Source: Vulcanimicrobiota bacterium (GTDB taxonomy: Bacteria; Vulcanimicrobiota; Vulcanimicrobiia; Vulcanimicrobiales; Vulcanimicrobiaceae). Taken from it: a stretch of DNA of 64,000 nucleotides. Shown in pieces: positions 14,390-24,916 of the stretch. Positions within the stretch are counted from its first letter, which is position 1, and each line of letters begins with the position of its first letter. The position numbers and the translations under genes are program-made. A model generated the notes under the pieces. The model made no database searches. It was not told the DNA's origin and saw only the letters and a program-made list of their open reading frames with translations. Location of the stretch: NCBI GenBank assembly GCA_963833095.1, contig CAWHWQ010000004.1, positions 192,001 to 256,000 of the forward strand, given 5' to 3'.

Positions 14390-14567
14390 AACCCTCGGTA
14401 ATGCCCCTTGACCGGCCGACCCTACTGCTGCCACCATCCTCGCACCATGATCTCGATGTTCGTTTCGACGACCACGACGACCACCACCACCACGACCACT
14501 GTCGTTCGGTGCAGGTTGACGTAGGCTAAAACACGAGATCAAGGACAGCTTACGAATTAGGGAGCCA
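14390..14567 (+). repeat. Duplicated copy of the thr promoter/leader region lacking the terminator hairpin
   Basis: 14390-14415 = 14995-15020; 14444-14556 = 15049-15161 (113 bp identical); then joins directly to TTAGGGAGCCA. Confidence 0.95.
14447..14524 (+). CDS. Thr-rich leader peptide, copy 1 (MISMFVSTTTTTTTTTTTVVRCRLT)
   Basis: Identical to 15052..15129. Confidence 0.6.
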   Translation: MISMFVSTTTTTTTTTTTVVRCRLT

Positions 14568-14649: not shown

Positions 14650-14991
14650 ATGAAGATACTTCGTGCACTTTTTGCCGTCGTCATTGCCTTTAGCATCCCC
14701 GTCGTAGCTCTGGCGGATTGCTATGTTTACGCTACGTGGTCGCCGGGACTTCTCGTCTACCAACCGGCGAATAATTCGTGCGTCACGGTAAAGCACGGAT
14801 TCCGATGCAAATTTGGCGCCGGAAAGACGATCTCCCTCGGTTTCGGTGGCCCGAACAGCACACGCACCGCCTGCATCGCGACGCTGCAGAACGTGGGCAG
14901 CATGTTTGCGGATAAGTGGCATCTTAGCACGAGCAGCGGCTGCAGCTTCCACTGGAAAGGTTCAAACACGGTTGAGGTCAGCCTTCGTTAG
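14650..14991 (+). CDS. Small secreted Cys-containing hypothetical protein
   Basis: GGAGG RBS, signal peptide MKILRALFAVVIAFSIPVVALA, 5 Cys in the mature part. Confidence 0.8.
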   Translation: MKILRALFAVVIAFSIPVVALADCYVYATWSPGLLVYQPANNSCVTVKHGFRCKFGAGKTISLGFGGPNSTRTACIATLQNVGSMFADKWHLSTSSGCSFHWKGSNTVEVSLR

Positions 14992-15012: not shown

Positions 15013-15042
15013 TTGACCGGTCCACCCCGCTGCTGCTAAGGT
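15013..15042 (+). promoter_or_regulatory. Putative sigma70 promoter of the thr leader
   Basis: TTGACC-N18-TAAGGT with TGn extended -10. Confidence 0.55.
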
Positions 15043-15051
15043 AGCCAAACC

Positions 15052-15129
15052 ATGATCTCGATGTTCGTTTCGACGACCACGACGACCACCACCACCACGA
15101 CCACTGTCGTTCGGTGCAGGTTGACGTAG
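15052..15129 (+). CDS. thrL: thr operon leader (attenuator) peptide, 25 aa with 11 consecutive Thr
   Basis: MISMFVSTTTTTTTTTTTVVRCRLT directly upstream of a terminator and thrC. Confidence 0.85.
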   Translation: MISMFVSTTTTTTTTTTTVVRCRLT

Positions 15130-15158
15130 GCTAAAACACGAGATCAAGGACAGCTTAC

Positions 15159-15196
15159 GAAGCCCCGCACCGATTGGTGCGGGGCTTCTTGCATTT
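15159..15196 (+). terminator. Attenuator terminator of thrCB
   Basis: Perfect 13-bp stem GAAGCCCCGCACC-GATT-GGTGCGGGGCTTC followed by TTGCATTT. Confidence 0.85.
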
Positions 15197-15210
15197 GTTA
15201 GGGAGCCAAC

Positions 15211-16347: not shown

Positions 16348-17246
16348 TCGCTTCGTCGTCAGTGTTCCCGCCACCAGCGCCAATCTCGGGCCGGGCTTCG
16401 ATTGTGTCGGCATCGCGCTCGACCTGCGCGCCCGCGCGATGGTCGAACCCGCGAAACGGCTTCTCGCTCGAATTCAGCGGCCCGGAACAACCCACGCACA
16501 TCGGGTTCGAACGGATGATCATCGACGCGATGCACACGATCAGCAGCGAGCTGCCGCGCGTGCGCGTACACCTCAACAATGCGATTCCGCTGGGCAAGGG
16601 CGTGGGCTCCAGCGCCGCCGCAAGCGCGCTCGGCATCACCATCGCCGCGCGTGCCTACGGCCTCGAGCTCTCTCGTGACGACATCGCGGATCGCGTGTGC
16701 GCGCTCGAGGGCCATCCCGATAACGCGCTGCCCGCCGTCTACGGCGGCATCGTGATCGCCACCTCGGCACGCGCCAGCATCAAACTCCCCGCGCCGCGCG
16801 ATTTACACGCGATCGTCGTCGTGCCCGAGTTCGATCTTGCAACCGAAAAAGCGCGCGCACTGCTTCCGATCCAGTACGATCGCCGCGACGTCGTCTTCAA
16901 CATTCAGCGCGCGGCGCTGCTCGGCGCCGCACTCGCCTCGGGCAACTGGAACCTGCTGCGCGAAGCGATGAACGACCGCTTCCACCAGCCCTATCGGGGC
17001 GAGGTCGTGCCCGGACTGGCCGACGCACTGCGCGTCGATTCACCCGAACTGATCGGCATCGCGCTCTCGGGCGCGGGGCCCAGCGTGCTAGCCATCGTCC
17101 GCGACCGTGCCGCGTGGCGCCCCATCGCCGCCCGCATCGCCGCTTGCTTCGAAGCCGCCGGCATCGCCGCCCGGAGCTACCGCCTGCCCTTCGCCGCGCG
17201 CGGCCTAGTTTCGCGCCGGCACTTGACGGAGCGCAAAGCGGCATGA
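16334..17246 (+). CDS. thrB: Homoserine kinase (frameshift near 16460)
   Basis: VPATSANLGPGFD in one frame; IPLGKGVGSSAAA, EGHPDN, DRFHQPYR, LSGAGPS in the next. Confidence 0.92.
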
Positions 17247-17252
17247 TAGCCT
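17223..17252 (+). promoter_or_regulatory. Putative promoter of the hom-metY-metX leader
   Basis: TTGACG-N18-TAGCCT with TGn; ATG 7 nt downstream. Confidence 0.55.
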
Positions 17253-17259
17253 ACCCGAA

Positions 17260-17343
17260 ATGTTCGCGCCCACCATGATGACCTGTTCCATGTGCATTAT
17301 TCAAATGAATAAGGCGGGGACTGTCATTGGGAGCACCGTGTAA
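17260..17343 (+). CDS. Met/Thr/Cys/Ile-rich leader peptide (MFAPTMMTCSMCIIQMNKAGTVIGSTV)
   Basis: 27-aa ORF between the promoter and a terminator upstream of hom. Confidence 0.75.
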   Translation: MFAPTMMTCSMCIIQMNKAGTVIGSTV

Positions 17344-17367
17344 AACACGGAATCGAGAAAGCACCAA

Positions 17368-17407
17368 AACGACGCCTCCGCCGATACGACGGGGGCGTCG
17401 TTCTTTT
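17368..17407 (+). terminator. Attenuator terminator upstream of hom
   Basis: AACGACGCCTCCG / CGGGGGCGTCGTT stem (one G-U) followed by CTTTT. Confidence 0.85.
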
Positions 17408-17432
17408 ACTCGGAGCTCAAAGGGAAACCATC

Positions 17433-18557
17433 ATGGACTGTACGGTTGGAATCGGATTACTCGGATGCGGCACGGTCGGCGCGTCGGTCGCGCAGCGTCT
17501 GCTCTCCGAGCGCGACGCGATCGAGCGGCGCAGCGGCGTGCGCTACAAACTCCAGGCGATCGCCATCGCCAATCCGTTAAAAGCCCGCCCGGCCGAAATC
17601 GATCCGGCGCTCTTCACGAAGAACGCGCGCGCCGTCATCGACGATCCGCGCGTCGATCTGATCGTCGAAGCGATCGGCGGCACCCACGACGCCTCCGAAC
17701 TGCTCGAATACGCGCTCGAACGCGGCCGCACGGTCGTGACCGCCAACAAAGATCTCATCGCGACGCAAGGCCCGCGCCTCTTTGCCCTGGCCCATTCGCG
17801 CGGTGCGCGCTTGCGCTACGAAGCCGCCGCCTGCGGGGCGATTCCGGTGATCCGCGTGCTCGACGACGCGCTCGCCGGCGATTACGTTCACGCCTTCGGC
17901 GGCGTGGTCAACGGCACGTGCACCTACATTCTCTCGCAGATGGAACGCGGCGAAGAGTACGACGTCGCGCTGCGCCGCGCACAAGAACTGGGCTTTGCCG
18001 AAGTCGATCCGACCAGCGACGTCGAGGGCCTCGACGCCGCGCACAAACTCGCACTGCTCATGCAGCTCGCGTTTCAAATGGCGGTGATCTCGCCGCGCTT
18101 ACGCCGCAGCGGCATCAGCGGGGTGAGCAAACGCGACGTGGCCCGCGCGCAAATGCTCGGCTATCGCATTCGCCTGGTCGCCGCCGCCACACGCAACGGC
18201 AACGTTGCCAGCGGCGAAGTCGCCCCGGTGCTCGTACCCGAAGCGCATCCGTTTGCGCAGGCCAGCGGACCCGAAAACGTCGTGCGCGTCGTCTCGCGCG
18301 ATGCGGGTGCGCTGCTGCTCTCCGGCACCGGCGCCGGCGGTTTTCCCACCGCGTCGGCGGTGCTCGGCGACGTGGTCACGGCGCTGCGCGACATCGCCAA
18401 TCAGCGCGCGGTGAATTACCCCGCGCTCAATCCCGCGCTCGATATCGCACCGCTGTTTGCGAACCTCGCGCGCCATCCCGAACTCCCACGCTATCCGGTG
18501 TGGGATGACTCGCTCCTCGAAGCTCCGGTCTCGCAGGTTGAAACTGCGTTCTCATGA
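17433..18557 (+). CDS. hom: Homoserine dehydrogenase (no evident ACT domain)
   Basis: GLLGCGTVG, VVTANK, YEAA, NGTCTYIL, GFAEVDPTSDVEGLDAAHK, GAGGFPTASAV. Confidence 0.95.
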   Translation: MDCTVGIGLLGCGTVGASVAQRLLSERDAIERRSGVRYKLQAIAIANPLKARPAEIDPALFTKNARAVIDDPRVDLIVEAIGGTHDASELLEYALERGRTVVTANKDLIATQGPRLFALAHSRGARLRYEAAACGAIPVIRVLDDALAGDYVHAFGGVVNGTCTYILSQMERGEEYDVALRRAQELGFAEVDPTSDVEGLDAAHKLALLMQLAFQMAVISPRLRRSGISGVSKRDVARAQMLGYRIRLVAAATRNGNVASGEVAPVLVPEAHPFAQASGPENVVRVVSRDAGALLLSGTGAGGFPTASAVLGDVVTALRDIANQRAVNYPALNPALDIAPLFANLARHPELPRYPVWDDSLLEAPVSQVETAFS

Positions 18558-20858
<2,301 letters not shown>

Positions 20859-20967
20859 GCATCCAATGGCCGGTGAGCGTTTTGAAACGCTTCTTGCGCC
20901 TTACGACCTATTTCCGGGCCGCCTTCCACGTGGGAATGATGATATACTCGTCCCACAAGGAGCCTGC

Positions 20968-21372
20968 GTGAGCGCCGAACCCCTCGAAAGCCGGATAGCC
21001 CGTATGGAGGGCGTCAACGTCCAGATCGCCGATCGCCTGAACAGCATCGACGGGCGGCTTGATTCGCTCGACGGCCGTATCGACTCACTCGATCGTAGCT
21101 TACGATCCGAGATTGGCGGAGTTCGCTCCGAGTTCGGCACCCTGCGCTCCGAGTTCGGCACCCTGCGCTCCGAGATGAATTCTCGCTTCACGCAGATCGA
21201 CGGTCGCTTTACGCAAATCGATGGGCGCTTTACACAAATCGACGGGCGCTTTTTGCAGATCGACGGCCGCTTCGCACAGATGGACCAAAAATTCACTTGG
21301 GTCATCGGCATTGTCGTGGCGTCTTGGACGACGAGCATGACGGCAACGCTGGCGCTATTCTTCCGCCACTGA
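20968..21372 (+). CDS. Heptad-repeat coiled-coil protein with C-terminal membrane anchor
   Basis: AAGGAG RBS + GTG; RSEFGTL x2, FTQIDGR x3 and variants, hydrophobic C-terminus. Confidence 0.8.
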   Translation: MSAEPLESRIARMEGVNVQIADRLNSIDGRLDSLDGRIDSLDRSLRSEIGGVRSEFGTLRSEFGTLRSEMNSRFTQIDGRFTQIDGRFTQIDGRFLQIDGRFAQMDQKFTWVIGIVVASWTTSMTATLALFFRH

Positions 21373-23435: not shown

Positions 23436-23528
23436 CGTGCGCATCGTGATCGTCGTCGCGACCATGCGCTCATTGCTACGGTAACTGCGCGCTGGGCGAG
23501 AATCCGCCCTGCTTTCTCTTCTATTACA

Positions 23529-23990
23529 CTAGCTGGGTTGGTCGAAGAAGCCCGGTTTGCTTTGCCCGACTTCGATGATGTACCCATCGGGATCGCGGAT
23601 GTAGCAGCGCGTCTCGCCGTACTTATCGAGCGGCTCGGTGAGAAACGTCGCGCCGCGGCTGCGCCACAATTCGTAGCACGCCGCGATGTCCGCAACGCGA
23701 AGATTCATGAAGCTGCTGATCACATGTGGGTTGGGAGTCTGGAGCGTTACGCCCGGTTTGTCCGGCGTCGGACCGCCTCCCGGGTTAAAGATGAGCCACG
23801 TGTTCGCGATTTGAACGTAGGCTGGGTCGTCGGGTCCTCTTAGGCTTTTGCGCGTAACTTTTGCGCCGAAAACCGTTTGATAGAATTGCACCGAGCGCTC
23901 GACGTCGGTGACGGTGAGAAAGAGCGCGGCGGTAAACCCCACTTGCGGTGGTATCGTATAGTCGATCTGCGCGACCTGGACTTCATCCAT
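23529..23990 (-). CDS. VOC/glyoxalase family protein
   Basis: LTVTDVERSVQFY..GGGPTPDKP..ETRCYIRDPDGYIIEVGQ. Confidence 0.9.
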   Translation of the reverse strand: MDEVQVAQIDYTIPPQVGFTAALFLTVTDVERSVQFYQTVFGAKVTRKSLRGPDDPAYVQIANTWLIFNPGGGPTPDKPGVTLQTPNPHVISSFMNLRVADIAACYELWRSRGATFLTEPLDKYGETRCYIRDPDGYIIEVGQSKPGFFDQPS

Positions 23991-24851
23991 ACTTGAACCC
24001 CGATTTGCTTTGGCCGACTTCGATGATGTAGCCGTCAGGGTCGCGGATATAGCAACGCGTCTCGCCGTACTTGTCAGAGGTTCGGTCAGAAACGTTGCGC
24101 CGCGGCTCTTCCAGAGCTCGTAGCATGGCCTGAATATCGGCAACGCGAATATTCAAGAAACTGCTGAACTCGTTGAGGGTGGGTGGGGTTCGCAGCGTTA
24201 CCGTCGGTTTATCGGGTGTCGGGCCACCGCCAACGTTGAGAATCATCCACGTATTGGCAATCCGAATGTACGGTGGCTCACCTCCCTGGTCGCCCATGCT
24301 CACGATTTCTCCGCCGAAGACCGTCGCGTAGAAGTTGGCGGATCGCGCTTGGGGTCGGCCACGGTGAGAAATTGCGCGATCGTCAAATCTTCGCCCGACG
24401 GCACTTCCCTGTACCCGGGCGTGCTTTGCCCGACTTCGATGATGTAACCGTCAGGATCGCGGATGTAGCAGCGCGTTTCGCCGTACTTCTCGATCGGTTC
24501 GGTGAGAAAGGTTGCGCCGCGGCTCTTCCAGAGCGTGTAGCACTTCGCAATATCCGCCACGCGGATATTCATGAAACTGCTGAACACGTTGGGGTCAGGC
24601 GGGGTTCGCAGCGTCACCGTCGGTTTGTCGGGTGTCGGGCCGCCGCCAACGTTGAGAATCATCCAGATGTTGGCGATCTTGATGTAGGGCGGGGCATTCC
24701 CGTCGCCCATGCTCACGATTTCTCCGCCGAAGACCGTTGCGTAGTATTTCGCCGAGCGCTCGAGGTCGGACACGGTGAGAAACTGCGCAATGGTGATCCC
24801 CTCGCGGGGTGGCATCTCAAAGGTCTTCTGATCGACTTGTACTTCGTCCAT
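23983..24851 (-). CDS. Double-VOC-domain protein (frameshifts near 24340, 24125, 24075)
   Basis: Two near-identical VOC modules, each with GGGPTPDKPTVTLRTPP and ETRCYIRDPDGYIIEVGQS. Confidence 0.8.
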
Positions 24852-24916
24852 GCCCCCATCCTAGCACTACGATTTACGAGCGCAATAGGTACTAAAAGTG
24901 TGCTATTTTGGAGTCT

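Follow-up and report, generated by a model that had tools for sequence, protein, structure and literature searches.

A probable ribosome-mediated attenuator with methionine and cysteine codons upstream of hom-metY-metX in Vulcanimicrobiaceae

Organization of the leader and its operon

The DNA examined here is a stretch of 64,000 nucleotides (nt) from a Vulcanimicrobiota bacterium of the family Vulcanimicrobiaceae (GenBank assembly GCA_963833095.1, contig CAWHWQ010000004.1, positions 192,001 to 256,000). This stretch is hereafter called the window, and all positions are given in its numbering. We focus on the region preceding the genes hom, metY and metX on the forward strand, where an upstream open reading frame (uORF) with several methionine (Met) and cysteine (Cys) codons is followed by an intrinsic terminator. 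An earlier note on this DNA had described a promoter, the ORF, the terminator and an antiterminator pairing, and sequence inspection together with folding recovered all four at the same positions. That anatomy was correct, yet it lacked a further helix (1:2), the probable leaderlessness of the uORF and the wide use of such leaders in the family.

The promoter, read from the sequence, is of the sigma-70 type (17223–17252, + strand) and consists of a −35 element TTGACG at 17223–17228, an 18-nt spacer and an extended −10 element of the form TGn-TAGCCT at 17244–17252, with the hexamer TAGCCT at 17247–17252. It sits within the 3' end of thrB, the stop codon of which forms the last three bases of the spacer and thereby the TGn of the extended −10. 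A generic promoter scan of 16500–18000 with a 9-of-12 threshold left this promoter uncalled, because its match falls below the threshold; its support is conservation, as TTGAC...TAnnnT is found in the same place in 80 hom upstream regions. The uORF (17260–17343, +; 27 codons, translation MFAPTMMTCSMCIIQMNKAGTVIGSTV) has its ATG at 17260, 7 nt behind the −10 box, and is therefore probably leaderless. The peptide had no family match in NCBIfam. Its predicted control codons are Met6, Met7, Cys9, Met11 and Cys12, with Met16 borderline, and the stall model described below places Thr5, Thr8, Ile13 and Ile14 within the stall-sensitive part as well.

The antiterminator takes its 5' arm (strand 2; 17313–17330, +) from the 3' part of the uORF, and its 3' arm (strand 3; 17364–17382, +) doubles as the 5' arm of the terminator; both strands were identified by folding and alignment. 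The intrinsic terminator (17368–17407, +; helix 3:4 plus U tract), which was terminator-like in the sequence scan as well, comprises a hairpin at 17368–17402 followed by TTCTTTT up to 17407 (−25.2 kcal/mol, z −4.06, none of 200 shuffles as stable). When the 3' arm of the terminator is omitted, the pairing of 17313–17330 with 17364–17382 is the best fold of 17305–17390 (−27.0 kcal/mol, z −3.28, 1/200 shuffles). In the minimum free energy fold, the Met and Cys codons pair with strand 2 in helix 1:2 (17266–17334, +), a putative anti-antiterminator and possible pause hairpin, and the best fold of the whole window leader combines this helix with the terminator. Folding also gave a small hairpin (17336–17350, +) which carries the uORF stop codon in its loop region, is nested inside the antiterminator and lies outside the family consensus pairs.

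The first regulated gene is hom (17433–18557, +), encoding a homoserine dehydrogenase of 374 amino acids (aa) with a purine-rich ribosome-binding site (RBS) at about 17419–17425. It matches NF004976 above the cut-off; the Pfam scan returned PF00742 and PF03447 only and detected no ACT domain, and the genome holds a single hom match. It is followed by metY (18582–19848, +), the two halves of which match TIGR01326 and NF006096 of O-acetylhomoserine sulfhydrylase type, and by metX (19845–20831, +), a homoserine O-acyltransferase gene with best matches to NF001209 and TIGR01392, both below cut-off. The genes thrC and thrB precede the leader and extend up to it, and no terminator on the + strand was found ahead of the leader in the scan of 16500–18000. 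In this assembly, metY is frameshifted near 19307, so that its first half continues in the metX frame as a spurious ORF of 749 aa, and thrB is frameshifted at 16459. Intact metY (421–422 aa) was present in three, and intact thrB in all four, of the four close relatives examined, all of which differ from the window at both sites; the two frameshifts are probably assembly errors. A broken metY is also carried by locus L031.

Conservation among hom loci

We collected 231 hom loci, of which 186 remained after leaving out 26 duplicates, 11 loci without the hom 5' end and 8 with less than 200 nt upstream. Titled relatives at 87–98% Hom identity include Ca. Eremiobacteraeota and Ca. Aquilonibacter. 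Leaders were called by a rule blind to codon content, which required promoter-like hexamers, a start codon 4–11 nt behind the −10, an ORF of 8–50 codons and a hairpin with a T run. Of the 186 distinct hom upstream regions, 97 passed this rule. Two automatic calls (L140 and L193) were removed as mis-calls before counting, although L193 may hold a leader missed by the pattern, since its genome has a covariance-model match at that place.

A split by the −35 hexamer alone gave 80 leaders with TTGAC and 15 with another hexamer, and this split coincided with gene content: metY or metX lies directly behind hom in 75/80 of the former and in 0/15 of the latter. The 80 TTGAC leaders represent 75 distinct peptides of 21–30 codons, with Hom identities down to 46%. 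The gap between −10 and ATG is 7 nt in 78 of the 80, and a Shine-Dalgarno (SD)-like word precedes hom in 74/75 but the uORF in 0/75. The fixed gap and the lack of an SD before the uORF suggest a leaderless transcript, with an inferred start site. From the uORF stop to the hom start there are 83–133 nt, and the terminators, whose hairpin was itself part of the selection rule, range from −17.6 to −38.5 kcal/mol with 3–9 T in the following 10 nt. The earlier note had suggested looking in related hom upstream regions for a conserved uORF and covarying stems, and both are present in these 80 regions, the uORF being rich in Met and Cys.

Most of the 89 hom regions in which no leader was called belong to distant metagenome homs, to paralogues or to homs within operons. 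Most of the 80 loci found in the metagenome scan are such distant homs (36–52% identity) without a Met/Cys leader. At L017–L021 and L025–L028, hom is followed by metY without a uORF or terminator, and a conserved stretch ahead of the matched part resembles an N-terminal extension of Hom.

Coding evidence and predicted inputs

Coding tests were carried out on a codon-blind alignment of the 75 distinct leaders, to which the counts below refer unless stated otherwise. Despite indels, the ATG and the anchor Met are separated by a multiple of three nt in 75/75 leaders, as opposed to 39/75 when the distance is taken to the terminator. No in-frame stop codons occur in the first 63 nt, versus 91 and 28 in the other two frames, while the selection filter itself guaranteed a stop-free frame for codons 1–8 only. 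ATG triplets are distributed over the frames as 318/42/3. Internal Met averages 4.24 per leader, 10.4 times the genome background, and Cys 1.88, or 7.8 times; the whole-leader values for Ser, Thr and Ile are 2.1, 1.2 and 0.6 times background. Dinucleotide shuffles gave 74±8 Met against the 306 observed, and 26±5 against 111 in 31 diverged representatives, where Cys (67 versus 51±5) was reached by 0/300 shuffles. Thr exceeds the shuffles (90 versus 45±6), whereas Ile is below the shuffled mean (38 versus 67±7). The sensing windows contain Met in 75/75 leaders, Cys in 72/75, Thr in 57/75 and Ile in 27/75, and 46/75 whole leaders lack Ile altogether. There was no third-codon-position signal, the entropies at codon positions 1, 2 and 3 being 1.10, 1.14 and 1.14; little freedom at the third position is expected, as Met has one codon.

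Judged by codon content, Met appears to be the robust input of the family and Cys a likely one, partly tied to the helix that holds its codons. For the locus in the window, we consider Met an input with high confidence and Cys a probable one.

The earlier note had proposed four inputs, such that stalling on Met, Cys, Thr or Ile codons would each open the operon. This is the same mechanism with different inputs, and its appeal lies in the single Hom without an ACT domain, on which Thr and Ile synthesis also draw. The present leader and a Thr attenuator before thrCB would then form a series in this genus. The four Thr and Ile codons in the stall-sensitive part of the window uORF and the excess of Thr over the shuffles agree with this proposal, and so do the sensing windows of the 14 leaders with thrB upstream, which contain Thr in 14/14 and Ile in 13/14 cases compared with 43/61 and 14/61 elsewhere. 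However, 12 of these 14 leaders are near-kin of the window (88–100% Hom identity) and form one clade in the Hom tree (88 of 89 proteins, FastTree, midpoint root), so the Thr/Ile excess is not independent evidence, and the Ile-Ile form is confined to one clade. The family-wide Thr and Ile values given above also speak against Thr and Ile as general inputs. Furthermore, ACG is one transition from ATG and would keep the 1:2 pairing, other genera with a single hom match have no Thr or Ile in the leader, and Thr is already served in the window by a separate leader of 25 codons with 11 consecutive Thr (15052–15129, +), which starts 9 nt behind a −10 box and is followed by a strong terminator (15159–15199, +) before thrC-thrB. 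This Thr attenuator region (15022–15199) lies 2.2 kb upstream of the Met leader. What stands of the four inputs is thus Met, and with less certainty Cys; Thr and Ile are not conserved family-wide, and the four-input reading therefore holds at best for this genus. Even there we regard it as rather unlikely. Taken singly, Thr is a possible input in the family and a doubtful one at this locus, and Ile, for which the family as a whole offers no support, is an unlikely one.

Alternative helices and switch modelling

Folding each leader separately gave three recurring helices. Terminator helix 3:4 has 86% of cells paired and two-sided changes in 9/13 pairs, antiterminator helix 2:3 has 80% and 11/16, and helix 1:2 has 86% and 14/17, with a covariation of 0.285 versus 0.167 in shuffled alignments. 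For all three, the percentage paired and the covariation score lie above all 500 shuffles and every slid control. The antiterminator has at least 8 pairs in 72/75 leaders.

The effect of a ribosome was modelled by equilibrium folding with the ribosome footprint masked codon by codon. Across the family, the 5' arm of the terminator is sequestered by upstream RNA to 0.73–0.77 on average when the A site is on the Met/Cys block; the value drops over the three codons after that block and reaches 0.15–0.19 at the stop codon. For the window leader, sequestration is 0.54 at codons 4–13, 0.26–0.37 at Met16, 0.00–0.08 at the stop codon and 0.12 without a ribosome.

These results are consistent with the following scheme. 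RNA polymerase would start at or beside the uORF ATG, and a ribosome would load on the leaderless 5' end. A shortage of Met or Cys would make the ribosome stall on the Met/Cys codons (codons 6–12 in the window) and cover strand 1, whereupon strand 2 would pair with strand 3 before strand 4 is made, no terminator would form and the operon would be transcribed. When both amino acids are plentiful, the ribosome would reach the stop codon and cover strand 2, helix 3:4 would form and transcription would end at about 17407. Without a ribosome, helix 1:2 of the window leader would hide strand 2, so that the terminator would form. We conclude that the leader is very probably a ribosome-mediated transcription attenuator of hom-metY-metX that follows the classical logic and uses a leaderless Met/Cys uORF, and that it very probably senses charged elongator Met-tRNA and probably also Cys-tRNA. 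Computation covers the anatomy of the leader, its conservation and codon bias, the covariation of the helices and the feasibility of the switch, and we infer the start site, translation, stalling, termination in vivo and the acting amino acids. A stalling attenuator with a mutually exclusive antiterminator, as proposed in the earlier note, is thereby well supported by conservation, frame bias, covariation and stall modelling.

Several results weigh against this conclusion. According to our own count from the table of loci, 25 of the 89 hom loci in which the rule called no leader have a met gene next, and the leader is therefore not universal. Cys is weakly above the shuffles in all 75 leaders (139 versus 124±9, reached by 17/300), its codons lie in helix 1:2, and 3/75 leaders are without any Cys. 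The shuffle controls ignore kinship, and since kin share sequence, the shuffle counts overstate the signal; the controls for the helices overstate likewise, because the helices were derived from the same sequences and kinship was again ignored. In its core, the antiterminator shows more conservation than covariation (helix 74–78 has two-sided changes in 2/5 pairs), and 24/500 shuffles attained the observed count of pairs with two-sided changes. For the window, the capture fraction was reached by 22/300 shuffles and the energy by 2/300. Finally, equilibrium folding of the truncated RNA without a ribosome leaves the terminator arm sequestered to 0.59 (family mean), and the no-ribosome state thus depends on kinetics, with helix 1:2 forming first.

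A ligand-binding riboswitch or protein-bound RNA switch of undescribed type could employ the same alternative helices, with the ORF being incidental. The covariation of the three helices and the equal variability of the three codon positions would suit such a switch. It does not account for the invariant ATG at a fixed distance from the −10, the frame kept in 75/75 leaders, the in-frame bias of ATG and the lack of stops, and the most conserved Met codon (62/75) lies outside the consensus helices. Moreover, no Rfam family matches. Five weak matches were obtained in the Rfam scan of 16500–18000, none of them a riboswitch and the best, on the hairpin, with an E value of 0.034; the scan of 16 related loci gave no riboswitch or T-box and only a tRNA. 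The exclusion of S-adenosylmethionine (SAM) riboswitches and T-boxes that the earlier note had recommended thus gave no Rfam riboswitch match at this locus. A genome-wide search, limited to SAM-I among the SAM classes, detected SAM-I in 0/41 family genomes, and neither SAM-I nor a T-box was found in the window's own genome (81% complete). We consider a riboswitch or protein-bound switch very unlikely.

Alternatively, the stall could be caused by the nascent peptide, or by SAM acting on the ribosome-peptide complex, rather than by a lack of charged tRNA, an analogue being the CGS1 gene of Arabidopsis, which reportedly undergoes SAM-dependent ribosome-peptide arrest. A recurring M-x-x-M-C-x-M-x-M-H-A pattern in the alignment could be taken for an arrest motif, but the His, Ala and Val/Ser codons are the partners of the ATG codons in helix 1:2. 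The C-terminal part is of variable length and, by column 77, frame-shifted in 5/75 leaders, and sister leaders follow their own amino acids. Given the stall model, a stall on excess SAM would also open the operon when closure is needed, and we regard arrest as highly improbable. The idea that the hairpin is a leaky terminator of the thrC-thrB operon and the uORF a product of chance, to which the lack of another terminator-like site on the + strand between thrB and the leader could lend some credit, can practically be dismissed, as the hairpin stands between a conserved promoter and hom and 61/75 leaders keep the whole layout without thrB upstream.

Four metatranscriptomes contain 0.06–0.13 of the words and are represented by contigs only. 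Contigs cover parts of the leader with 0–4 differing letters in 4/4 runs; three cross the terminator into hom and two begin inside thrB. Contigs reveal neither transcript ends nor strand or level and could stem from DNA, so no conclusion is based on them.

A second layer of control may be added to the attenuator in relatives of the window. A conserved CTTTCCCATC motif, absent in the window, precedes the hom SD in 59/75 leaders (e.g. L013, L047 and L175). In these 59 leaders, SD access is 0.47 with a stalled ribosome versus 0.23, being more than 0.2 higher in 29/59 and as much lower in none, and the SD freed upon stalling suggests a translational layer there. In the window, access to the hom SD is nearly unchanged (0.61 stalled, 0.69 with the ribosome at the stop). 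The motif possibly represents an anti-SD switch or a protein site, and it had no Rfam match. It also occurs just before the SD of sulfur genes (L048, L068, L163, L202 and G000:C5:570133), and is kept even without a uORF, as at L048, where it comes straight after the promoter.

Leaders of the same build in the genome and family

The 15 hom regions without a met gene behind have Thr-rich leaders, with 7.6 Thr, 1–3 Met and about 1 Cys per leader; the leader type thus switches with gene context at hom. Such Thr-run leaders are carried by a clade of hom genes without met neighbours (L209, L211–L214, L075–L082, L085, L089 and L096).

Scanning the window's own genome gave 793 sites with a promoter and a start, of which 333 have a short ORF and 52 a hairpin. 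Five of these 52 show TTGAC together with a terminator no weaker than −25 kcal/mol and a gene 81–92 nt behind the stop. These five are the Met/Cys leader before hom, the 11-Thr leader before thrC, and three others. A Leu/Val/Ile leader with terminator (L234; G000:C5:455693, −) precedes a gene for an ilvB-like thiamine pyrophosphate enzyme and then an ilvC-like gene. A second Met/Cys leader (L232; G000:C5:569992, +) precedes an NMT1/THI5-type ABC transporter, which we take to be of the sulfonate type, and is conserved in three genomes of the genus (L292, L294 and L296). The fifth (L233; G000:C5:336719, −) is a Pro-rich leaderless uORF of 20 codons with a terminator of −31.5 kcal/mol before a gene for pyrroline-5-carboxylate reductase (PF14748), and we regard it as a candidate proline attenuator.

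A covariance model built from the 75 hom leaders ranks four of these five first in the window's own genome. With the training sequences included, it matches 75 of the 121 genomes of the class, with 73/99 in the family and 1/3 and 0/18 in the other two families. Sixty weaker matches were fetched, which excluded hom leaders already known, duplicates on the antisense strand and the majority of the weakest matches; the uORF was called automatically in 39 of them and read by eye in the rest, and 30 of the 60 downstream proteins were scanned against Pfam. Among these, Met/Cys leaders precede genes for Cys/Met pyridoxal phosphate (PLP) enzymes, sulfite reductase, PAPS reductase, TauE and NMT1-type binding proteins, and two Met-only leaders from one genus, both read by eye (L286 and L325), precede Cys/Met PLP enzymes. 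Phe/Tyr/Trp leaders are found before genes for EPSP synthase (aroA-like) and prephenate dehydratase (pheA-like), Leu/Val/Ile leaders before KARI and an HMGL-like enzyme, Ile-rich leaders before PALP (ilvA-like) genes, and a leader containing Thr, Ile, Met and Leu before an AA-kinase/ACT protein with a C-terminal DNA-binding domain. The leaders of the aromatic, Ile-rich and AA-kinase/ACT groups are L280, L283, L284, L288 and L319; L300, L307, L310, L327, L328 and L333; L304, L313 and L330; and L305. Leaderless uORFs with two Lys codons precede the Orn/DAP/Arg decarboxylase (lysA-like) genes at L285 and L334, which are candidate lysine attenuators. A few calls (L315, L323, L332 and L336) do not fit. 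The family thus appears to place such leaders before many amino-acid genes, covering Thr, Leu/Val/Ile, aromatic, Lys, Pro and sulfur pathways. As these further leaders agree with the pathways behind them, they serve as natural controls which favour the attenuator reading of the hom leader.

Some further features were observed around the operon. A near-exact copy of the thr promoter and Thr leader lies at about 14390–14560 (+; uORF at 14447), without a terminator, and precedes an ORF of 113 aa at 14650–14991 that looks secreted and had no Pfam match. Directly after metX, an ORF of 168 aa (20866–21372, +) shows 7-residue repeats, is coiled-coil-like and has a weak match to DUF7310 below the cut-off. 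Two or three similar tandem ORFs at 23500–24900 (−) are presumably glyoxalase/VOC-like.

Comparison with known systems and implications

Control of methionine genes by SAM riboswitches, T-boxes and repressors is established. Met is an awkward signal for a leader peptide, because its starvation could also block initiation, which would close the switch. The leader described here has every feature tested of the trpL/thrL type: end-product codons, a terminator, an exclusive antiterminator, helix 1:2 and a modelled stall switch. As far as they are described in the available part of the source, trpL, hisL, thrL, leuL, ilvL and pheL of E. coli and Salmonella likewise combine a uORF of end-product codons, helices 1:2, 2:3 and 3:4, an intrinsic terminator and a stall that frees strand 2 (PMC1183508). 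The hom leader differs from these in its Met and Cys control codons, its probably leaderless uORF without an SD, its position before a methionine operon, its occurrence in a different phylum and its lack of a sequence family match.

Three assignments were rejected. A thrL-type leader would have a run of Thr/Ile codons, which is absent here (Thr 1.2 and Ile 0.6 times background over the 75 leaders), and the true Thr leader is the separate one at 15052. A SAM riboswitch or T-box was rejected as no Rfam covariance model of either kind matched in 16500–18000 or in the 16 related loci. A mycobacterial polycysteine small ORF was rejected because the window uORF has two non-adjacent Cys codons in its middle, Met outnumbers Cys by 4.24 to 1.88 per leader, and a terminator is present.

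A close precedent is metL (SLIV_29928) of Streptomyces lividans, which lies ahead of metNIQ and encodes a leaderless peptide containing Met and Cys codons; its authors call it methionine-dependent in the part of the publication available to us (PMC8079986). Like metL, the hom leader is probably leaderless, contains Met and Cys codons and stands before methionine genes. According to the same part of that source, however, metL precedes an import system, its Met/Cys codons are located at the 3' end, a typical intrinsic terminator was not found and the termination is called unclear (PMC8079986), whereas a full terminator/antiterminator set covaries here over 75 leaders before biosynthesis genes. 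Given this published prediction, the suggestion of the earlier note that a methionine-responsive attenuator of this kind may be undescribed was too strong. The mycobacterial Ms5788A, as far as the accessible portion of the preprint describes it (bioRxiv 10.1101/834739), is a leaderless sensory uORF that responds to a sulfur amino acid via ribosome stalling, as the hom leader would, and forms a regulon of several copies. It has consecutive Cys codons at its 3' end and acts through translational occlusion of the SD, shown not to be termination (bioRxiv 10.1101/834739), while in the hom leader Met dominates, the codons are in the middle of the ORF and the output is an intrinsic terminator. A predicted uORF before cysS of Rhodobacterales, uORFC-8-2, resembles the hom leader in having Cys codons in the first stem and an intrinsic terminator; in the part of the source available, it differs by two tandem Cys codons, no Met and its position before a tRNA synthetase gene, and the word 'methionine' is absent from the main text (PMC8632094). 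No conserved RNA structures before methionine operons of Actinobacteria are reported in the portion at hand of PMC1262725, and the accessible parts of PMC2965389 and PMC1183508 provide general context, with no Met leader seen in them.

Our literature search found no experimentally tested attenuator with Met codons and nothing on attenuation in this phylum; supplements and most subscription papers, which could hold a Met leader, were outside the search. Vitreschak et al. (2004) are said to have predicted a Thr/Ile/Met attenuator of thrA in Pasteurellales, a multi-input leader with Met codons at the homoserine branch point; it is reportedly dominated by Thr and precedes the gene for a bifunctional aspartokinase/homoserine dehydrogenase. 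By this description, it is closer to the Thr-rich hom leaders found here than to the Met/Cys leaders. The mechanism is thus classical, and the Met signal has predicted precedents only.

The locus bears on whether the charging of elongator Met-tRNA can act as a regulatory signal and on whether transcription and translation can be coupled from a leaderless start. For functional work, a complete Met/Cys attenuator is available in 75 natural variants that supply control codons, helices and spacing, and in a mostly uncultured soil phylum the codon content of leaders predicts the role of the downstream gene, including the candidate Lys and Pro attenuators. On a wider scale, we tentatively propose that attenuators of a single build with leaderless uORFs have taken over amino-acid control in Vulcanimicrobiaceae, where no SAM-I riboswitch was detected in 41 genomes. 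The Met sensor among them would read elongator Met-tRNA and yet need initiator Met-tRNA to load; Met-only versions would stand before cystathionine synthase/lyase-like genes and Cys/Met versions across sulfur uptake and reduction, alongside Lys and Pro sensors. In this genus, Thr and Met/Cys attenuators in series on thrC-thrB-hom-metY-metX may bring Thr, Ile, Met and Cys signals together at the homoserine branch point, and in most relatives the switch may also unmask the hom RBS, which would combine transcriptional with translational control.

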